32,000 bases of DNA, from assembly GCA_036703255.1 (NCBI GenBank), contig DATNPL010000151.1:1-32000 (forward strand), in the 5' to 3' direction. Origin of the DNA: Coleofasciculaceae cyanobacterium. Lineage in GTDB: Bacteria > Cyanobacteriota > Cyanobacteriia > Elainellales > Elainellaceae. A model generated the notes under the pieces. The model was not told the origin of the DNA, searched no databases, and saw only the letters and a program-made list of their open reading frames with translations. Below are positions 3,656-13,796 of this stretch, piece by piece. Position numbers and translations under genes: made by a program. Positions within the stretch are counted from its first letter, which is position 1. Each line of letters begins with the position of its first letter.

Positions 3656-3783
3656 TTCGAGGCTTAAAACTCAGCATACTGGACTTGTGTCTACACCGTA
3701 GGGAAAGAAGAGTGCAGCCAAAAACAGCAGCGATCGCCCCTCAAAAACAAAGATTGCGATCGCCCACTCCACCAATGCCACTT

Positions 3784-3825
3784 GAAACAGCAGTGTTTCG
3801 GTTTGAAACAGCAGTGTTTCGGTTT
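3784..3825. repeat. Perfect 2 x 21-bp tandem repeat; each unit contains a 6-bp stem hairpin
   Basis: gaaacagcagtgtttcggttt occurs at 3784..3804 and again at 3805..3825. gaaaca/tgtttc are complementary around the loop gcag. The flanking cacttgaaac (3779..3788) and gtttcaagtg (3822..3831) are also complementary. Confidence 0.9.
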
Positions 3826-3828
3826 CAA

Positions 3829-4045
3829 GTGAGACGTTTCTCGTTCTGAACTGCATCATTCAGGCAAAAAGTGCGACATTCCGAGTTCTGAGCTGCATTG
3901 TTTGAGTAAAAAGTGAGATGTTTCTCGTTCTGAACTGCATTGTTCGAGTAAAAAGTGTGGCGTTCCGAGTTCAAAGGCTGACGTTTCATGTTCAAAGCTC
4001 GAAGTGTGACGTTCCGAAGGAAAAGTGTCGCGTTTTGAAGCCGAT
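3829..4045. repeat. Degenerate tandem array: three 42-bp units followed by shorter units sharing the AAAAGTGnGnCnTT core
   Basis: Units start at 3829, 3871 and 3913 (exact 42-bp phase): gtgagacgtttctcgttctgaactgcatcattcaggcaaaaa / gtgcgacattccgagttctgagctgcattgtttgagtaaaaa / gtgagatgtttctcgttctgaactgcattgttcgagtaaaaa. Further AGTGTG(G/A)CGTTCCGA-type cores start at 3955, 4004 and 4025. Confidence 0.85.
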
Positions 4046-4064
4046 CAATCGATCGTAAACCCGT

Positions 4065-4133
4065 AGGGGCGAGGCATTCGGCAGATCCCTTCTCGGTCAA
4101 CCCAGAAATTGACCTCCCGAATGCTTCGCCCTC
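4065..4133. repeat. Nested hairpin element (MITE-like or structured leader) about 70 bp upstream of the 4206 start codon
   Basis: aggggcgaggcattcgg (4065..4081) pairs with ccgaatgcttcgccctc (4117..4133) over ~15 bp with one G-U position. The inner ggtcaa (4095..4100) pairs with ttgacc (4109..4114). Confidence 0.6.
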
Positions 4134-4205
4134 AGCCTGTCATGACGGAATAGATTTGATTGGAGTAAAGTAAAGGCAACAAAGCACAGGATGGGAGTGC
4201 CGTAG

Positions 4206-4694
4206 ATGTCGAGCGATCGCCTGCCCCAAGTAGAGAAGAACCTATATCGTCTGCGAGAGCAGCTACATGGCAAAGAAGATACGCTCACCACGATCGCCCC
4301 CGAAGAAAAAGTGCGAATCAAGCAGCAAATTGCTGATTTGAAAGCTGAGATCAAGCCGCTTGAGCAAGAATATTGGCAGATTTTGGCGGAGCGATCGGCT
4401 GCTGTCTCTGTTGAAGAATCAGAGGCAGAGGTGATTGTGGCAGAGTTGGTGGAGCAGGTCGGACAACTGCAAGCCAGCCAGCAATACCCGCCCGAAATTT
4501 TGCCGCTGTTGCAAAAGATTGTTCAAGAGGTCAACAAGCCCGGAGCGCCTGCCGCCGCCAAGCTCAAGGGAACGCTCTCGCTGCTGCCGCCTTTTGTCAA
4601 TGTGACTTACGAAGCCGAGCTGGATACTGAAAACTTCCTACGAACTCATTTCCCGACCTTTACCCGATGGGCTAAAGCACTGGCAAAAAAGTAG
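4206..4694 (+). CDS. 162-aa protein with a coiled-coil-like N-terminal half; probable N-terminal module of the downstream STAND NTPase
   Basis: ATG at 4206. The heptad-like charged sequence LYRLREQLHGKEDTL...IKQQIADLKAEIKPLEQEY is present. The ORF ends GCA AAA AAG TAG (4683..4694) and the downstream NB-ARC ORF is open in the -1 frame from 4676. Confidence 0.6.
   Translation: MSSDRLPQVEKNLYRLREQLHGKEDTLTTIAPEEKVRIKQQIADLKAEIKPLEQEYWQILAERSAAVSVEESEAEVIVAELVEQVGQLQASQQYPPEILPLLQKIVQEVNKPGAPAAAKLKGTLSLLPPFVNVTYEAELDTENFLRTHFPTFTRWAKALAKK
4685..4691 (+). promoter_or_regulatory. Candidate -1 ribosomal frameshift heptamer A_AAA_AAG (or the site of a 1-nt homopolymer indel)
   Basis: The X_XXY_YYZ heptamer is in the correct phase with the 4206 ORF and sits immediately before its TAG. 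The -1 frame continues GTA GCC TCC ... into the NB-ARC ORF. A possible stem, cctctga (4698..4704) with tcagggg (4720..4726), starts 6 nt downstream. Confidence 0.35.
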
Positions 4695-4762
4695 CCTCCT
4701 CTGATCCGATCGCTTCAGGTCAGGGGATTATTGGACAACCCGCCAGCCGATCGCCCCACAAT

Positions 4763-6553
4763 TTGCCCTACACCGGAGCCACTGAATTTGTCGGGCGAGA
4801 AGCCGACCTACAAAAGCTGCACGATCGCCTCCAAGAATCTAACCTGCTGGCAATTACAGCAATTCAGGGCATGGGCGGCATCGGCAAGACCGAATTGGCG
4901 TTGCAATATGCCTATAGCGCACTGGCGCAAGACCAATATCCGGGGGGGGTGTGCTGGCTGCGATCGCGGGAAGACATCAGCACTCAAATTGTCGGCTTTG
5001 CCAGAGTTCACCTAGACTTATCGCTGCCGACTGAGCTGGATTTGTCGCAGCAGGTCGCCTATTGCTGGAGCCACTGGCGCGAGGGCAAGGCGCTATTGAT
5101 CTGGGATGACGTAACGGACTATGCCGAAGTTCAGCCCTACCTGCCGCCGAGGGGCGATCGCTTCCAGATTTTGCTGACCACGCGGGTCGATCTGGGGGCA
5201 TCGGTGCGGCAGTTGCGGCTGGAGGTGTTGAGGGAAGAAGCGGCGCTAGATTTGCTGAGGGCGATCGTCACACAGGGCGGAGAGGTTGAAGACCTCCGAT
5301 TTCTTGAAGAAATCGGAGGTCTGGAGCGGCAGCTTTGTCAATGGGTGGGCTATTTGCCGTTGGGATTGGAGCTGGTGGGGCGGTATCTGGCGCGCAGGAA
5401 AGAGGTGTCGATCGCCACCCTGCTGCAACGGCTGCAAGAAAAACGGCTGGAGGCAAGGGCGCTGCTGCAAGCCGAACCGGGAATGACGGCATCGCTGGGG
5501 GTGGCGGCGGCGTTTGAGCTGAGTTGGCAAGAGCTAAAGCCGTCGGCAAAAGAGCTAGCCGCATGGCTGAGTTTGTTTGCCCTTGCGCCGATTGCTTGGA
5601 CGCTGGTGCAAGCCTGTTTGCCAGAGTGGGATGAGGAAGATCTGGAGGATGTGCGAGACGAAGAGCTGCTGGGGCTGCATCTGCTGCAACCCTCAGAGGC
5701 AGGCATATACCAACTGCATCAGCTCTTGCGAGAATTCTTTGCGGCAAAGCGGCAGCAAATGCCAGCCGAAGCCGCGATGCAGCAAACCCTGTGTCGGGTG
5801 ATGGTGGCAGAGGCAGAACAAATTCCCCAAACCCCAACGCTAGATCTAATTGCCCAATTCACGCCTCTCATTCCCCATCTAGAAGAAGTGGCAACCGCCC
5901 TCACCGACTGCCTCACAGACGATGACTTGATTACACCCTACACTCGAATTGCCTGGTTTTACGAAGGACAGGCGGCCTATGCTCAGGCGCAACCGTGGTT
6001 GGAACAATGCCGAGCAACCGCCGAAACCCGTCTAGGCAAAACCCATCCCGCTGTGGCAACCAGCCTCAACAATTTGGCATTGCTGTACCAATCCACCGGA
6101 CGCTACAGTGATGCCGAGCCATTGTTGGTGCGATCGCTGCAAATTAATGAGCAACAGTTAGGAGCCGACCATCCCGACACAGCCCAAAGCCTCAACATTT
6201 TGGCAGGGCTGTACAAAGCCACCGGACGCTACAGTGATGCCGAGCCATTGTTGGTGCGATCGCTGCAAATCAGAGAGCAACAGTTAGGAGCCAACCATCC
6301 CGACACAGCCCTCAGCCTCAACAATTTGGCATTGCTGTACGACTCCACCGGACGCTACAGTGATGCCGAGCCTTTGTATCTTCGGGCAGTGGTAATTTTT
6401 CACAATCGACTGGGCGAAACCCATCCCACCTTCCAAACCGTTTGGGGTAATTTCATTGCGTTTCTGAGGCAAGCGATTCAGGCAGGGCAAACCGCGCAGT
6501 TATCCGAGCATCCGATGACACAGGACGTGCTGGAACAACTGAGGCGATCGTAG
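4763..6553 (+). CDS. STAND NTPase: NB-ARC domain plus TPR (kinesin-light-chain-like) repeats
   Basis: NB-ARC features: FVGREADL, P-loop GMGGIGKTELA (nt 4868..), Walker B LLIWDDV, ILLTTR, GYLPLGLELVG (GLPL motif). These are followed by 42-aa TPR units HPDTA-SLNNLALLY-STGRYSDAEPLL-RSLQI-EQQLG. The only in-frame start is TTG 4763 (first ATG-encoded Met is inside the P-loop). The frame is open upstream to 4676. Confidence 0.9.
   Translation: MPYTGATEFVGREADLQKLHDRLQESNLLAITAIQGMGGIGKTELALQYAYSALAQDQYPGGVCWLRSREDISTQIVGFARVHLDLSLPTELDLSQQVAYCWSHWREGKALLIWDDVTDYAEVQPYLPPRGDRFQILLTTRVDLGASVRQLRLEVLREEAALDLLRAIVTQGGEVEDLRFLEEIGGLERQLCQWVGYLPLGLELVGRYLARRKEVSIATLLQRLQEKRLEARALLQAEPGMTASLGVAAAFELSWQELKPSAKELAAWLSLFALAPIAWTLVQACLPEWDEEDLEDVRDEELLGLHLLQPSEAGIYQLHQLLREFFAAKRQQMPAEAAMQQTLCRVMVAEAEQIPQTPTLDLIAQFTPLIPHLEEVATALTDCLTDDDLITPYTRIAWFYEGQAAYAQAQPWLEQCRATAETRLGKTHPAVATSLNNLALLYQSTGRYSDAEPLLVRSLQINEQQLGADHPDTAQSLNILAGLYKATGRYSDAEPLLVRSLQIREQQLGANHPDTALSLNNLALLYDSTGRYSDAEPLYLRAVVIFHNRLGETHPTFQTVWGNFIAFLRQAIQAGQTAQLSEHPMTQDVLEQLRRS
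6043..6420 (+). repeat. Three near-identical 126-bp intragenic repeats (TPR units) within the STAND gene
   Basis: The ccatccc landmark recurs at 6043, 6169, 6295 and 6421 (exact 126-nt period). Long identical runs include caccggacgctacagtgatgccgagccattgttggtgcgatcgctgcaaat. Confidence 0.9.
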
Positions 6554-6633
6554 AGGCAAAGAGTAGTATGGTGGCATAGCCTAAGTCTTAAGCATCAGCT
6601 TAGTAGACATCAACCTGAAGACCGGAGACAATC

Positions 6634-6834
6634 ATGTCTGAGCTAACATTGGATCAAAATCAACTCAAAGCGATCGTCAAAGTTGCCCTGCTTGAGCTGT
6701 TTCAAGAAAATCGTAGTGCCTTTACCGAGCTGATTGCAGAAGCGATCGAAGAGATTGGGCTAGAACGAGCGATTGTAGAAGGCGAAGCTACCGAACCAGC
6801 TAGCCGAGCCGATATCTTCAAACTGCTGGAGTAG
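6634..6834 (+). CDS. Putative antitoxin of TA cassette 1 (66 aa, acidic)
   Basis: GGAGA lies 6 nt upstream of the ATG. The stop is 5 nt before the GTG of the RelE/ParE toxin gene. The call rests on small size, acidity and position; no family recognised. Confidence 0.6.
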   Translation: MSELTLDQNQLKAIVKVALLELFQENRSAFTELIAEAIEEIGLERAIVEGEATEPASRADIFKLLE

Positions 6835-6839
6835 CAAGC

Positions 6840-7106
6840 GTGAAGGTTGAGTTCCGAAAAAGCTTTGAAAAAGATCTGCGTAAACTCCGCGATGCCTCAC
6901 TGCTGCAACGAATTAAAGCTGCTATTGAAGAGGTAGAAAGTGCTGAGAGTCTTGAGACAGTCAGCAATCTTAGCAAACTTAAAGCCGAAGGCAATCACTA
7001 TCGTATCAAGATTGGGGATTACAGAATCGGCATCGCGGTTCAATCTAATTCAGTGGACTTTATTCGAGTTCTACATCGTAAGGAAATTTATCGCTACTTT
7101 CCTTGA
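6840..7106 (+). CDS. RelE/ParE-family type II toxin (88 aa)
   Basis: F-KDLRKL, KLK....YRIKIGDYRIGI and IRVLHRKEIYRYFP are the characteristic RelE/ParE (plasmid stabilisation) signature. GTG start. Confidence 0.8.
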   Translation: MKVEFRKSFEKDLRKLRDASLLQRIKAAIEEVESAESLETVSNLSKLKAEGNHYRIKIGDYRIGIAVQSNSVDFIRVLHRKEIYRYFP

Positions 7107-7131
7107 GGCTAATTCTATCGAATGATTGGAG

Positions 7132-7214
7132 AAGCGATTCAGGCAGAGCAAACCGCGCAGTTGTCCGATCATCCAGCGACACAGGATGTGCTAGAGCAAC
7201 TGAGGCGATCGTGA
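7132..7214 (+). pseudogene. Displaced copy (copy B) of the last ~27 codons plus stop of the STAND gene
   Basis: Gap-free alignment with 6471..6553, about 72 of 83 positions identical by hand count. It translates in frame to EAIQAEQTAQLSDHPATQDVLEQLRRS*, versus QAIQAGQTAQLSEHPMTQDVLEQLRRS* in the intact gene. Confidence 0.75.
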
Positions 7215-7325
7215 TAGGCTAGGCGCGATCGTCTTGGCTAAAGGCTGAGGGGCGATCGCATGAGTTCTGGGCGACTCTACAATCTTGCTACAATTCAGTC
7301 AATGCACACCCGACTCGCCACACTC

Positions 7326-7535
7326 ATGACTCACTCAGTCGAAAACTATCCCTTCGCGCAAGAGTTTATCACTGACCCTCAAGGTAAAATTCGCAAAGTC
7401 ATCTTAGACATTACAGACTACCAAAAATTGCTAGAAGCCTTAGAAGACGAGGGGCTATATCGGGCAATGCAAGAAGTTTCCTCCGAAATTCCCCTCAGTC
7501 TAGAGGATGCCTTATTAGAACTAGAGCAACCGTGA
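7326..7535 (+). CDS. Putative antitoxin of TA cassette 2
   Basis: KVILDITDYQKLLEALEDEGLYRAMQE is typical of small cyanobacterial antitoxins. Its stop overlaps the GTG of the downstream toxin (GTGA at 7532..7535). The start is uncertain: in-frame ATGs at 7260, 7302 and 7326, the first two lying inside the repeated promoter-like segment. Confidence 0.55.
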   Translation: MTHSVENYPFAQEFITDPQGKIRKVILDITDYQKLLEALEDEGLYRAMQEVSSEIPLSLEDALLELEQP

Positions 7536-7797
7536 TCGTCAATTACTTGCCAAGTTTTATTCGAGACTTGAAAGCGCTCAAGAATCCCCTATTTACGAAA
7601 CAATTAGACAGCTAGCGTTTGAAGAAATCCCTGCCAGTGGCATCGACCAAATTCCTGACCTCAAGAAAATCAAAGGATACGATCGAGCATACCGAATTCG
7701 AGTGGGCGACTATCGCGTCGGCCTCTTCATCGAAGACAACACCGTAACCTTTGCCAGAGTCCGCCATCGACGCGAGATCTATCGCTATTTCCCCTAA
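7532..7797 (+). pseudogene. RelE/ParE-family toxin with a frameshift
   Basis: From GTG 7532 the sequence reads VIVNYLPSFIRDLKALKN..., then hits TAG. The rest, (E)SPIYETIRQLAFEEIP...YRIRVGDYRVGLFI...VRHRREIYRYFP*, is in another frame. The span is 266 nt, not a multiple of 3. The shift is near the aagaatcccc run. This is a homologue of the 6840..7106 toxin. Confidence 0.75.
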
Positions 7798-7802
7798 AAC
7801 GC

Positions 7803-7869
7803 CAAACCCACGCAACGCTCAAATCATCCGCCGACACAGAGAGTGCTAGAGCAACTAAGGCGATCGTGA
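7803..7869 (+). pseudogene. Second displaced copy (copy C) of the STAND gene 3' tail
   Basis: It translates in frame to AKPTQRSNHPPTQRVLEQLRRS*. The following taggctaggcgcgatcg (to 7886) is identical to the sequence after copy B (7215..7231). Similarity resumes at tctgggcg.ctc.acaatcttgctacaattcagtcaa (7266..7301 vs 7923..7960). Confidence 0.65.
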
Positions 7870-7950
7870 TAGGCTAGGCGCGATCGCAGTCGTGACGGAG
7901 ACAGTGTTACAGCAGCTTCAGGTCTGGGCGGCTCCAACAATCTTGCTACA

Positions 7951-7996
7951 ATTCAGTCAAAGATTCAGTCAAAGATTCAGTCAAAGATTCAGTCAA
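7951..7996. repeat. 12-bp tandem repeat attcagtcaaag, ~3.8 copies, in the pta upstream region
   Basis: Perfect copies at 7951, 7963 and 7975, plus a partial copy at 7987..7996. The homologous segment at 7290..7301 has a single copy. The repeat starts within or just after a TACAAT -10-like hexamer (7947..7952). Confidence 0.9.
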
Positions 7997-8063
7997 CGTA
8001 CACTTTTCAGTCAGTTGGTTAAGCTGCCGATCGATTTGTCCTTTTGCTAAGAGCTACGTCATC

Positions 8064-10151
8064 ATGTCACGCAATCTTTACATCGCGGCGATCGCCCCCG
8101 ATAGCGGCAAATCTGTGGTTGTGTTGGGGTTGATGGAGCTACTGTCTAAGCGCATTGACAAAGTAGGATTCTTTCGTCCGGTGGTGCAGGCAGGCAGCGC
8201 CCATGATAATGATATTGAGCTAATTCGCAGCCGCTACGCGAGCGAAATTCCCTATGAGATGCAGTATGCCCTCACCCACGAAGAGGCGCGATCGCTGGTG
8301 GCGGAAGGTCGCTACGATGAGCTACTAAAGCGGGTAATTGAAAAATACAAATCGCTAGAGCGGCAATGTGATTTTGTTCTGTGCGAGGGCATTGATGCCT
8401 CTGATCTTGGCTCTGCCTTTGTAGACAACTTTGACACGCGGGTGGCAAACCTCTTGTCTGCCCCGATCTTTATGGTGGTGAATGGGCAAGACAAGCAGCC
8501 CGTCGAAGTGATTGATGCCCTCCGTACCGATCGCGAAACCTTTGTAGAGGCAGGATGTGCGATCGCCGCTACGATTGTCAATCGGGTTTTGCCTGCTCAA
8601 CATCAGGCTGTTTTAGAGTCGGTAGAAAAAATCTGGGTTTGCAAAGACCCGGTATTTGTGTTGCCAGAAGAAACGTTGCTGGCAAAACCCACGATGGCTG
8701 AGATTGCCAACGCCCTCAACGGTCAGCTTTTGTATGGCGAGGGCAGCTTGCTCAATCGGGAAGTTCTGAGCTTTAAGGTGGCTGCTATGCAGGTTGCTAA
8801 CTTTTTAAGCTATCTGGAAGAAGGCGGGCTAATCATTACACCCGGCGATCGCGCGGACGTGATTTTGGGCTGTTTGGCCAGCACGTTTTCCGATAGCTAT
8901 CCCAACATTGCAGGCATTATCCTTACGGGCGGTCTTGCGCTAGCGCCCTCGCTGCAAAAGCTGCTAGAAGGGCTGACCCGATGGACAGTGCCCATCTTTA
9001 GCGTCCAGACTGACACCTACGAAACGGCAACCCAGATCAATCAAGTCCATGCCGAAATTACGCCCGATAACGATCGCAAAATTGCCTCAGCCTTGGGTTT
9101 ATTTGAGTCCCACGTCGATATTGTCCGACTTGAGGAACAAATTTCCGTCTCCCGCTCTGGTCGGATTACGCCGCTGATGTTTGAGTATGACCTGATCGAA
9201 CGGGCGCGGGCAAACAAGCAGCACATCGTTTTGCCAGAAGGACAAGAAGAGCGCATTTTGCGGGCGGCAGAAATTCTGCTGCGGCGAGGCGTTGTTGAGC
9301 TAACGCTGCTGGGCAATGAGACAGAAATCCGAGAACACATTGCGGCGCTAGGGCTAAACCTAGACGGCATTCACATCATCGACCCGATGCAGTCAGAATG
9401 GCATGAAGCCTATGCCCAGACCTATTTTGAGCAGCGTCAGCACAAGGGCATCACGCTAGACTTTGCCCGCGACATGATGCAGGATGTCAGCTATTTTGGC
9501 ACGATGATGGTCTATAAAGGCGCGGCGGATGGCATGGTGTCAGGCGCGCTCCACACGACGGCGCACACGATTCGCCCAGCCCTAGAGTTTATTCGCACGC
9601 AGCCAGGATGCTCGATCGTCTCTAGCGTTTTTCTCATGTGTCTAGACGATCGCGTTTTGGTTTACGGCGATTGTGCCGTCAATCCTAACCCCGATCCTCA
9701 ACAACTGGCCGATATCGCCATTAGCTCAGCGGCGACGGCTGAAATGTTTGGCATCGAGCCGCTGGTGGCTCTGCTGTCTTACTCAACGGGAGAGTCGGGC
9801 AAGGGCGAAGATGTCGATAAGGTGAAGCAGGCAACCCAAATTGCTCGATCGCAGCGTCCTGATCTCAAGGTAGAAGGGCCGATTCAATATGATGCGGCAG
9901 TAGATGAAAGTGTGGCGAAGACCAAGCTGCCCGGTAGCGCTGTGGCAGGTCATGCAACAGTGTTTATCTTCCCCGACTTGAATACAGGAAATAATACCTA
10001 CAAAGCGGTGCAGCGATCGGCCAATGCGGTTGCGATCGGCCCAGTCTTGCAGGGTTTGCGTAAGCCCGTCAATGATTTGAGCCGAGGCTGCACGGTTACA
10101 GATATCGTCAATACGATCGCGATTACCGCAATTCAGGCGCAGGCTGTCTAG
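8064..10151 (+). CDS. pta: Phosphate acetyltransferase, long form (N-terminal P-loop-like/DRTGG region plus PTA_PTB domain)
   Basis: 695 aa. The N-terminus is MSRNLYIAAIAPDSGKSVV.LGL. The C-terminal catalytic domain shows HIVLPEG.EERIL.AA, GADGMVSGA.HTTA, SYSTGESGKG and IFPDLNTGNN.YK, all typical of Pta. Confidence 0.9.
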   Translation: MSRNLYIAAIAPDSGKSVVVLGLMELLSKRIDKVGFFRPVVQAGSAHDNDIELIRSRYASEIPYEMQYALTHEEARSLVAEGRYDELLKRVIEKYKSLERQCDFVLCEGIDASDLGSAFVDNFDTRVANLLSAPIFMVVNGQDKQPVEVIDALRTDRETFVEAGCAIAATIVNRVLPAQHQAVLESVEKIWVCKDPVFVLPEETLLAKPTMAEIANALNGQLLYGEGSLLNREVLSFKVAAMQVANFLSYLEEGGLIITPGDRADVILGCLASTFSDSYPNIAGIILTGGLALAPSLQKLLEGLTRWTVPIFSVQTDTYETATQINQVHAEITPDNDRKIASALGLFESHVDIVRLEEQISVSRSGRITPLMFEYDLIERARANKQHIVLPEGQEERILRAAEILLRRGVVELTLLGNETEIREHIAALGLNLDGIHIIDPMQSEWHEAYAQTYFEQRQHKGITLDFARDMMQDVSYFGTMMVYKGAADGMVSGALHTTAHTIRPALEFIRTQPGCSIVSSVFLMCLDDRVLVYGDCAVNPNPDPQQLADIAISSAATAEMFGIEPLVALLSYSTGESGKGEDVDKVKQATQIARSQRPDLKVEGPIQYDAAVDESVAKTKLPGSAVAGHATVFIFPDLNTGNNTYKAVQRSANAVAIGPVLQGLRKPVNDLSRGCTVTDIVNTIAITAIQAQAV

Positions 10152-12047: not shown

Positions 12048-13796
12048 ATGACCACTATTCTAATTGTTGAAGATACAGCTTCTTTGCGGGAAGAAATCCT
12101 GCAAATGCTGAATCTAATGAATTTTCAAGGTGTTGGTGCACCGGATGGTGTCACGGCCGTACAGTTAGCCCAGCAGTATCTTCCAGATATCATTCTCTGC
12201 GACATCATGATGCCAGAAATGGATGGATATGCGGTTCTACAAACCCTGCGGCGCAATCCTGAAACGGCACGCATTCCCTTTATATTTCTGACGGCCAAAG
12301 CCGATCGCGCTGATATCCGGCGAGGCATGAACTTGGGAGCCGATGACTATCTCACGAAGCCTTTTACCAGCGATGATTTGGGTGAGGCGATCGCTGCCCG
12401 ACTTTACAAGCATGCCGCCATTACCACGCCCTATGTCTCCGAAATGAAGCGGGCGGCAGAACAGTTGGGGCAGATGGCTTTTCGAGATGGACTCACGGGG
12501 CTACCCAATCGTATTCAGTTTCAGCATCGCCTTCAGGAGGCATTGGTTCAGGCAAAGCTCAGACACAGGGCGATCGGAGTGTTGTGCCTCAATCTAGAGC
12601 GATTTCGAGCGGTCAACGTGCGCTTTGGCCAGTCGGCAGGAGATACGCTATTGCAGGCAGTGGCCGAACGGCTAAAAGCTTGCGTCACGAGCAATGATAC
12701 GGTTGCCCGACTCAGCGGCGATGAGTTTTGCGTCTTGTTGCCCAACCGTGATCTCGATGGCAACTTAGACGGTGACTCTAACGGCGACATTGCTCTGGCG
12801 GCGGAGGAAATTCTCAAAACGCTATCGGCTCCCTACCTGATTCAAGATCAGTCCCTGCGGATTCAAATCAACATGGGTGGCACGATTTATCCCAACGACT
12901 GTAGCCCTGGCGATCGCTTGCTCAACCATGCCGTCATTGCAATGAATTGGGGCAGAGATCAAGGCAATGCTAGCTGTCAGTTTTACAGCGGCGAAATCGC
13001 TCAGGCTACCGCTAATCGCCACATTTTAGAAACCGGACTCCGACGCGCATTGGACAAATCGGAGCTAAAGGTTCACTATCAGCCTCAGGTCAATCTAGTG
13101 ACCGGACGAATTATTGGAGCAGAGGCTTTTTTGCGGTGGCAGAGCGCTGAGCTAGGTTCGGTACCGCCTTTCAGCTTTATTCCGGTGGCAGAAGAGACAG
13201 GTCTGATTGTTCCGATCGGCGCATGGATGATACAAATGGCTTGCTTGCAGGCCAAACTGTGGCAATCGCAATATTTGCTGCCCCTGCGAATGTCGGTCAA
13301 TCTCTCAGCCTATCAGTTTAAGCAGCCCGGCCTGAGGCGATCGATCGCGCAAGTCTTGCAGGAAACAGAGCTAGACGCTGATTTATTAGCGATCGAGCTG
13401 TCTGAAGCCACCATTATGGAAGATGTAGAAGCCAGCCTGATCACGCTGCAACAAATTAAAGAGTTGGGTGTTCATGTCAGCATTGACGACTTTGGCACAG
13501 GCTATTCATCTCTCAACTATCTGACGCAACTGCCGATTGATACTCTCAAAATTGACCGCGCTTTTATCAGCAATATTGCCAGCCCCGATCATGATGGGGC
13601 GATCGCTTCAGCCATTACAGCATTGGCTCGTAGCCTAAATTTGCGTGTGGTGGCCGAGGGCGTTGAGACACAAGAGCAGCTTGCCTTTCTCCGCCGACAG
13701 GGTTGCAATGCGCTGCAAGGTTTTCTGTTTAGTCCGGCAATTTCTGCTGAGGAGTTTGAGAAACTTTTAGCAGAAGATAAGCGATTGTCGCTTTAG
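12048..13796 (+). CDS. Response regulator: REC + GGDEF (SGDEF variant) + EAL (EAF variant)
   Basis: REC: ILIVEDT...DIILCDIMMPEMDGY...TAK. GGDEF domain with RLSGDEFCVLL. EAL domain with GAEAFLRW, DDFGTGYSSLNYL, AEGVET and QGFLFS. It lies 46 nt downstream of the kinase gene. Confidence 0.9.
   Translation: MTTILIVEDTASLREEILQMLNLMNFQGVGAPDGVTAVQLAQQYLPDIILCDIMMPEMDGYAVLQTLRRNPETARIPFIFLTAKADRADIRRGMNLGADDYLTKPFTSDDLGEAIAARLYKHAAITTPYVSEMKRAAEQLGQMAFRDGLTGLPNRIQFQHRLQEALVQAKLRHRAIGVLCLNLERFRAVNVRFGQSAGDTLLQAVAERLKACVTSNDTVARLSGDEFCVLLPNRDLDGNLDGDSNGDIALAAEEILKTLSAPYLIQDQSLRIQINMGGTIYPNDCSPGDRLLNHAVIAMNWGRDQGNASCQFYSGEIAQATANRHILETGLRRALDKSELKVHYQPQVNLVTGRIIGAEAFLRWQSAELGSVPPFSFIPVAEETGLIVPIGAWMIQMACLQAKLWQSQYLLPLRMSVNLSAYQFKQPGLRRSIAQVLQETELDADLLAIELSEATIMEDVEASLITLQQIKELGVHVSIDDFGTGYSSLNYLTQLPIDTLKIDRAFISNIASPDHDGAIASAITALARSLNLRVVAEGVETQEQLAFLRRQGCNALQGFLFSPAISAEEFEKLLAEDKRLSL

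Follow-up and report, generated by a model that had tools for sequence, protein, structure and literature searches.

Downstream of rhs and cdiA genes, co-oriented 3' fragments of the main gene are interleaved with toxin/immunity-type genes, and the older copies lie farther away and are decayed. A comparable layout is present in a 32,000-nucleotide (nt) stretch of DNA, here called the window, at the start of contig C215 (DATNPL010000151.1) of a Coleofasciculaceae cyanobacterium (assembly GCA_036703255.1; the source genome, G000, a 7.1-Mb assembly rich in HIP1). Displaced copies of the 3' end of a gene for a signal transduction ATPase with numerous domains (STAND) alternate there with toxin-antitoxin (TA) cassettes, and the endpoints of the copies are associated with HIP1, a hyper-abundant cyanobacterial palindrome (GCGATCGC, core CGATCG) whose function has been debated for thirty years. 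We conclude that a conserved NB-ARC/TPR STAND gene anchors, by its 3' end, an integrase-free array of TA cassettes at this locus. The best-supported reading, which we hold with somewhat more confidence than doubt, is that TA cassettes were inserted with long target duplication and that the tail-plus-spacer units (T-R) between them were then shuffled by homologous recombination.

In the literature, this layout was found only for restriction-modification (RM) units. These insert with long target duplication and carry no mobility genes (Furuta, Abe and Kobayashi 2010, PMC2853133); the cases are mostly from naturally competent bacteria, with one from the cyanobacterium Microcystis (PMC2853133), and a 2013 review ascribes this mode of insertion to RM systems only (PMC3874152). 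Our literature search retrieved no description of TA arrays behind gene tails in cyanobacteria. The RM units of Nobusato et al. (2000) and Furuta and the locus studied here both feature a small selfish unit of post-segregational killing that lacks mobility genes, flanked by direct repeats of tens to hundreds of bp; these repeats occur nowhere else in the genome and can extend over the 3' end of the adjacent gene. The present units differ in being type II TA pairs, in their apparent serial insertion, with up to five repeats at one gene end, and in having endpoints on HIP1. Islands that target tRNA genes and the tycheposons of Prochlorococcus, which are integrative elements targeting 3' ends (10.1101/2020.12.28.424599), also possess direct repeats that represent the displaced 3' end of the target, tandem accretion, and some cargo-only units; however, they employ dedicated integrases, a fixed crossover site, and mostly tRNA targets, whereas the present array gives no sign of an integrase and has endpoints at varying HIP1 sites. 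Breakpoints at GCGATCGC/CGATCG are also shared with known HIP1 rearrangements (Gupta 1993; Akiyama 1998; Kamoku and Nielsen 2024), but the published cases are deletions, plasmid fusions, and engineered integrations, and none is a natural gene capture that duplicates a gene end. These reports include HIP1-flanked excision (Gupta 1993, smtB), site-specific plasmid recombination at HIP1 (Akiyama 1998, as reported in a citing paper), and an integration frequency that was up to 7-fold higher with HIP1 in the homology arms and >100-fold higher when the sites were methylated (10.1101/2024.09.10.611283).

A repeat search of the window identified an 81-nt family with tail A, at the end of the STAND gene (6471-6551), as its reference. 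Tail B (7132-7212), which follows the first TA cassette and is offset by 661 nt from tail A, matches tail A without gaps at 72 of 81 nt (89%), and tail C (7787-7867), which follows the second cassette, is 60% identical over the full 81 nt. In a BLAST search against the whole genome, the match between A and B had E=9e-24, and tail C aligned with A over 43 nt (7825-7867) at 81% identity and with B over 139 nt at 78%; this second recurrence is decayed (~7823-7869). Copy B may weakly resemble the STAND 3' end from as far back as 7107, directly after the stop codon of toxin 1, and TAA at 7110-7112 stops read-through. The translations are G*FYRMIGEAIQAEQTAQLSDHPATQDVLEQLRRS* for tail B and NAKPTQRSNHPPTQRVLEQLRRS* for tail C, with asterisks for stop codons, and the encoded ends of the tail copies are EAIQAEQTAQLSDHPATQDVLEQLRRS* and ...NHPPTQRVLEQLRRS*. 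Copies B and C further share the post-stop sequence tgataggctaggcgcgatcg, and an exact 24-nt block, ACAATCTTGCTACAATTCAGTCAA, occurs twice, at 7279-7302 and 7937-7960. An earlier note, made by reading this DNA, had described the recurrence of the tail after each cassette and the shared downstream sequence, and both searches bear it out.

When the 7.1-Mb genome was searched with a hidden Markov model (HMM) of T-R, no copies beyond these three had E<0.01. With three copies only in the source genome, by BLAST and by the HMM, a generic dispersed repeat is ruled out, and the tails are genuine displaced STAND 3' ends that are specific to this locus. A paralogue in the same genome (C29), which is 54% identical, ends in a related tail without downstream copies; proteins of this STAND family normally include the tail peptide. 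By hand count, tails A and B differ by 5 synonymous and 4 nonsynonymous substitutions, 6 of the 9 being at third codon positions, which suggests that their divergence was partly under coding constraint, 81 nt being too short to build on.

The anchor gene has the domain order of a STAND NTPase: an NB-ARC P-loop NTPase domain (Pfam, 1.3e-17, residues 13-230) is followed by a repeat sensor region of TPR_10/TPR_12 motifs (about residues 390-545; TPR_12, 7e-39). Its orthologues in Drouetiella hepatica (G004, a metagenome-assembled genome [MAG]) and in G005 are 95% and 88% identical, respectively, at the nucleotide level. Both cassettes behind it are antitoxin-first two-gene operons with family matches for both genes, as is typical of type II TA systems by sequence. 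The earlier note was right that both are of the RelE/ParE type, that their toxins are homologous (39.5% identity), and that the second toxin is a pseudogene, which needs two frames when matched by tblastn to the intact toxin of G051. The statement that the antitoxins are unrelated went too far: their best Pfam families do differ (PF25734 versus PF18506), but both match RelB-type families, antitoxin 1 having a weak match to PF18506 (E=0.007). Antitoxin 2 matches PF18506 with 1.1e-23 from residue 31 of the listed open reading frame (ORF), and 89 homologues of it were found in filamentous cyanobacteria. The features of the locus, together with the array layouts of relatives and the two hsdM loci discussed below, are compiled in Table 1.

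Table 1. Coordinates of the features of the STAND-anchored TA array, layouts of related arrays, and duplicated hsdM ends (T, tail; R, spacer; t, tail as written for G005)
Feature	Location	Strand	Remarks
NB-ARC/TPR STAND gene, array anchor	4763..6553	+	596 codons from TTG
Tail A (T_A)	6471..6553	+	Last 27 codons plus stop; working copy
Left end of tail A	6473-6480	+	Degenerate HIP1, GCGATTCA
Right end of tail A	6545-6550	+	CGATCG site 1
Remnant of spacer R after T_A	6554..6563	+	First part, aggcaaagag
Start of TA1-specific DNA	~6564	+	At position of HIP1 site 2; alignment to the G003 STAND-T-R reference ends at reference position 197
Antitoxin 1	6634..6834	+	66 aa; PF25734 RelB_like_antitoxin, 3.3e-16
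Toxin 1, predicted ParE/RelE type	6840..7106	+	88 aa, open frame; PF05016 ParE_toxin, 5.8e-11
Tail B (T_B), displaced STAND 3' end	7107..7214	+	Site 1 CGATCG at 7206-7211
Spacer R_B, conserved post-stop element	7215..7259	+	Common to arrays of relatives
HIP1 sites of R_B	7226-7231 (site 2); 7253-7258 (site 3)	+	
TA2 leader/promoter-like block, partial copy	7266..7302	+	Exact 24-nt repeat; homologous to the leader upstream of TA2 in G003
Antitoxin 2, RelB-like	7302..7535	+	Likely start ATG 7302 or 7326; listed ORF 7260-7535
Toxin 2 pseudogene, ParE/RelE type	~7532..7797	+	Frameshift near codons 16-22
Tail C (T_C), decayed displaced tail	7798..7869	+	Recognizable from about 7803/7823; site 1 CGATCG at 7861-7866
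Spacer R_C, truncated	7870..7886	+	Sites 2 and 3 fused into a single CGATCG (7881-7886), by comparison with G004_E and G003_C
TA2 leader/promoter-like block, second and fuller copy	7887..7960	+	Now upstream of pta
Putative pta (phosphate acetyltransferase-like; name from the earlier note)	8064..10151	+	ORF; right flank, outside the array
hsdM-[Fic]-hsdS	C139: 5113-5200 / 6628-6715 (L045 2613-2700 / 4128-4215)		hsdM end repeated, 84%
hsdM-[Uma2]-hsdS	C140: 34406-34467 / 35103-35164 (L046 1906-1967 / 2603-2664)		hsdM end repeated, 82%
Array of G004			STAND-T-[RelB/ParE]-T R-[HicBA]-R-[DUF4926]-T R-[HicBA-2]-T R-[TA2]
Array of G005			STAND-T-[antitoxin+ParE/RelE-like][DUF2442+MqsA-like]-t R-[HicBA-2]-t R-[RelE-like pair]-t R
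Array of G003			STAND-T R-[DUF6883+DUF4926]-T-[PemK/DUF2281, inverted]-T R-[TA2]
Array of G051			STAND-T-[DUF4160/DUF2442-like pair]-T-[TA2, intact]-T

Tail matches were present in all of the other species of the genus (5/5), four of which contain several copies, and in 13 of the 57 genomes of the family, where two further genera have several copies a few hundred bases apart. Within this small sample of relatives, whose assemblies are partly fragmented, similar arrays were identified in seven related genomes or assemblies of at least three genera, mostly behind an orthologous STAND gene; the carriers are G004, G005, G003, G001, the Elainellales MAG G055, G051, and the ENA contigs L039/L040. 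A scan of genome contigs with the STAND alignment retrieved 11 loci, with arrays only in relatives that were already known, and in a metagenome scan with the R pattern only the twin record of G004 matched. Across the relatives, the arrays comprise up to five tail copies and about ten different TA cassettes in varied order. The cassette types include RelB/ParE, HicAB, DUF6883/DUF4926, DUF2442/MqsA-like, and PemK, and every cassette tested was a TA-type pair. Further variants of the array occur in G055, G001, and L039/L040. The first cassette behind the STAND gene differs among species, and TA2 tends to be distal. Since the cassettes are found in different array layouts, the same cassette has different neighbors in different genomes. 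The presence, absence, and order of cassettes thus differ among relatives, with tail repeats between the cassettes, in line with the cassette exchange that the earlier note had proposed. Separately, L039 contains a 96-nt piece (4815-4910) overlapping a minus-strand PemK-like gene, and a second copy of it, 90% identical, follows a later cassette of the same array (7757-7852); it looks like a displaced piece of a cassette gene and not of the STAND gene.

The repeat unit consists of a 5'-truncated STAND 3' end (20 to 140 nt) and a spacer R of ~60 nt that contains three CGATCG sites (consensus GTGAnAGGCTAGGnGCGATCGTCTTGGCTCAAAGCTGAnGGGCGATCGC); the L039/L040 arrays are punctuated by a related 56-nt R, which is also bounded by CGATCG. 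Identity to the working tail falls outward from 89 to 63% in G000 and from 79 to 73% in G003, and amounts in G004 to 86, 63, and 58% at copies B, D, and E, respectively, the tail being unrecognizable at C. Displaced tails gain stop codons (G004_B) and internal deletions. Toxins have been inactivated repeatedly as well: the TA2 toxin is frameshifted in both G000 and G001, is interrupted by a nonsense codon in G003, and is intact in G051, and toxin 1 of G004 has an in-frame stop. The decay gradient and the broken toxins fit serial accretion next to the gene, with older units moved outward. Furthermore, R copies differ at 4.3 positions per 34 nt within a genome versus 5.2 between genomes (permutation p=0.013), and their similarity does not follow the downstream cassette; this likeness within genomes is consistent with ongoing exchange. 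The unit as a whole (upstream repeat region, adaptor, STAND gene, and array; ~3705-8010) resides in a different chromosomal setting in each of G000, G004, and G005. Between G000 and G004, DNA homology sets in at 4752; the type of the upstream adaptor gene in G004/G005 differs from that in G000/G055. In Nodosilinea sp. LVE1205-7 (L026), two adjacent and otherwise different STAND/TPR genes have 206-nt 3' ends (7821-8026 and 12488-12693) that are 89% identical, which suggests concerted evolution of STAND tails.

Under insertion with long target duplication, the duplicated interval would comprise the last 80 to 140 nt of the STAND gene, usually together with the HIP1-rich spacer R of ~60 nt, and the cast-off tail would remain distal to the newly entered cassette; because the STAND 3' end is duplicated, the STAND reading frame would stay whole. 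New cassettes would tend to enter beside the gene and older ones would be pushed outward and decay, which is the order of events that we infer. The several T-R copies could then act as portable homology, and homologous recombination between them, possibly dependent on RecA and on transformation, could delete, insert, swap, and homogenize units, with other chromosome copies of a polyploid cell or transformed DNA as potential partners. The cassettes may be selfish addiction modules that incidentally stabilize the STAND locus. Two features known from units of this type are seen at the array: (i) the flanking direct repeats are 81 to 130 nt long, above 30 bp, and otherwise unique in the genome, and (ii) the cassettes hold TA genes only, PF00589 being absent from the three long array contigs.

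To map the endpoints, every copy was aligned to a reference from G003 in which STAND, T, and R are contiguous. Longer tails have their left ends at either of two positions, both of which are CGATCG in functional orthologues, namely, ~140 nt before the stop codon (G055 copy 3, G001_c, and L040) and ~81 nt before it (G000_B/G004_B, G003_B, G001_b, and G055 copy 2). In G055 copies 2 and 3, G003_B, and G001_b, homology starts exactly at CGATCG. The right ends of the repeat are at HIP1 site 1, 2, or 3 of R. In R_C of the window, the stretch between sites 2 and 3 is gone, corresponding to a deletion between two HIP1 cores, and in G004_E and G003b_2 the segment between sites 1 and 2 is inverted. Such inverted 13-nt segments were located in L013 (G004:C66; reverse-complement 6306-6341) and in L020 (1052-1091). 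The DUF6883 gene of G004 (L013, reverse-complement 5315-5385) is deleted from a HIP1 site at codons 5-8 to its last codons, and DUF4926 is left alone. The joints on CGATCG/GCGATCGC suggest that HIP1 may have supplied microhomology or a crossover hot spot for capture.

Several observations weigh against insertion with target duplication at HIP1. (i) An empty site, in which a STAND orthologue would be followed by one T-R only and by no cassette, was not found, since every orthologous locus found carries a cassette; we therefore infer the target duplication rather than observe it. (ii) The G001 and L039 arrays lack an adjacent full-length STAND gene. (iii) One cassette, PemK/DUF2281, is inverted. 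(iv) T-R is dense in HIP1, with 4 to 5 sites in about 200 nt, the chance of an endpoint coinciding with a site within a few nucleotides is about 30 to 40%, and many endpoints are shared by descent. (v) Several shortened tails have left ends off HIP1, which we read as later deletions, and site 0 of G000 is only HIP1-like (GCGATTCA).

Because T-R is dense in HIP1 and many endpoints are inherited, the STAND locus alone is only suggestive of a role for HIP1, and the whole genome was therefore scanned for other 3'-end duplications, taken as local direct repeats with a first copy at the end of a long ORF. The clearest further cases were two type I RM operons, hsdM-[Fic]-hsdS and hsdM-[Uma2]-hsdS, in which a foreign gene (Fic or Uma2) separates hsdM from hsdS and is flanked by a repeat of the hsdM end. 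Both duplications start exactly at GCGATCGC, with no similarity before it, and extend to the hsdM stop/hsdS start. Given the genome density of GCGATCGC of 1.23 per kb, two exact coincidences are very unlikely to be due to chance. The two hsdM loci are independent and unrelated to the STAND locus and have the same kind of 3'-end duplication. For these insertions, too, a search of relatives gave no clean empty site; the relatives have other inserts or a nonoverlapping junction. We tentatively propose, as a possibility that we would not call probable, that HIP1 is a joint for integrase-free gene capture: foreign DNA bounded by HIP1 would be joined in close to a gene end, at a staggered pair of HIP1 sites, and the duplicated interval would supply reusable docking repeats, the STAND arrays and the hsdM-[Fic/Uma2]-hsdS loci being natural records of such events.

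The resemblance to rhs/cdiA displacement that the earlier note had pointed out holds in part. As in rhs/cdiA orphans, co-oriented 3' fragments of the gene lie downstream and decay with distance; however, the STAND tails are near-identical ends of 27 to 45 codons that encode no alternative toxin domain or other functional module. The cassettes are self-contained, autonomous TA operons with no fusion to the tail, and the STAND protein therefore has nothing functional exchanged. The idea that an incoming cassette brings a replacement C terminus is not supported as it was worded, and target duplication fits equally well.

Four other explanations were weighed. In the first, which we consider unlikely, a recombinase encoded elsewhere (integron-like, Xer-like, or HIP1-directed) acts on the T-R core and moves cassettes as circles, the array resembling a cluster of attC sites lacking an integrase (CALIN). 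The co-oriented small cassettes are indeed split by a conserved ~90-nt unit, in which the core TGCTAGAGCAACTGAGGCGATCG is followed by R, and another lineage has a conserved R-like repeat of 56 nt with CGATCG at its ends. Breakpoints are at palindromic HIP1 sites, inversions lie between HIP1 sites, and site-specific recombination at HIP1 between plasmids is mentioned in a paper citing Akiyama 1998. Sedentary chromosomal integrons and CALIN share with the array mostly co-oriented small cassettes, many TA pairs, and repeats of ~60 to 130 nt that are homogenized within a genome. However, there is no intI nearby or on the contig, and a search for PF00589 (Phage_integrase) revealed no tyrosine recombinase on three long array contigs of 113 kb (G000:C215), 126 kb (G004:C66), and 305 kb (G005:C47); the only trace of an integrase is a 200-aa fragment 3 kb from the L039 array. 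In contrast to integrons, the repeats have no attC architecture or GTTRRRY core, vary in length, and derive from the coding end of a host gene; their left ends include 20 to 140 nt of tail and their right ends are at three different sites. The same kind of duplication at the hsdM genes, where the sequence is quite different apart from HIP1, also argues against a recombinase recognizing the T-R core. A structured attC-like site was rejected: pairs in R are predicted only between HIP1 palindromes, without compensatory change or covariation, and the core motifs are absent from the boundaries, GTTRRRY being found within 6400-8100 only at 6846 and 8018, neither of which is at a boundary, and RYYYAAC being absent. 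No Rfam family matched within 6300-8200 at E<=1.

The earlier note had offered as its own alternative that the tails are relics of two deleted STAND paralogues. In this explanation, tandem paralogues, each once followed by a TA cassette, would later have lost their bodies. We disfavor it and regard it as improbable. Tandem STAND genes with homogenized 206-nt 3' ends do exist in the Nodosilinea genome, and the G001 array holds a 127-nt STAND remnant with its own distinct C terminus. Yet the ~20 copies in seven genomes are all <=140 nt long and all correspond to the extreme 3' end, none having 5' or middle parts; the better-preserved ones are 79 to 93% identical to resident tails versus 49 to 72% to the in-genome paralogue C29; and their left ends are concentrated at two fixed sites, a pattern not expected from random deletion. 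Equally improbable in our view is that T-R is kept for a function useful to the cassettes, such as that of a terminator/insulator with a promoter or of a short ORF that is translated, and that the repeats are not scars. Different genera have the 3' half of R (GCTGA..GGGGCGATCG.GGGTAT) in conserved form, invariably just before a cassette, and the TA2 leader block is reused upstream of pta, but a promoter/terminator scan gave nothing above shuffle expectation, R shows no covariation, and the tail parts decay, gain stops (G004_B), and are shortened by deletions. Least credible is local tandem amplification of one [tail + spacer + TA] unit with a period of ~658 nt, followed by divergence with the tails kept alike by gene conversion: the periods of 661 and 655 nt are almost the same, the toxins are homologous, and R copies are slightly homogenized within genomes, yet the cassettes between tails of 89% identity have no detectable DNA similarity, their toxins are only 39.5% identical, their antitoxins are in different Pfam families, relatives interleave HicAB, DUF6883/DUF4926, and PemK between the same repeats, and the nearest relatives of TA2 are indicated to be in other genomes and contexts and not in the neighboring unit, so that simple tandem amplification does not explain how near-identical tails come to enclose cassettes of unrelated TA families.

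To the right of the array, homology to the pta locus of G005 begins only at 8011, and the pta orthologue of G005 is on a different contig with a different upstream neighbor. A 12-nt unit, agattcagtcaa, is repeated ~3.8 times at 7951-7996, directly after the second TA2 promoter-like block and upstream of pta. At the start of the contig (134-1074, minus strand), there are decayed reverse-transcriptase-like ORFs with a YADD motif, of which a 252-aa part has no Pfam match.

Insertion of TA cassettes with long target duplication, followed by exchange between T-R copies, would offer a concrete route by which TA modules without mobility genes may spread and stack in chromosomes. The HIP1-bounded duplicated intervals provide a testable clue that may tie this pattern to the function of HIP1 and to the HIP1-boosted integration of transforming DNA. 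Since the array has an NLR-like STAND anchor and the upstream adaptor is swapped between species, the locus is a modular hot spot and, as such, of interest for the building and stabilization of bacterial immune islands.

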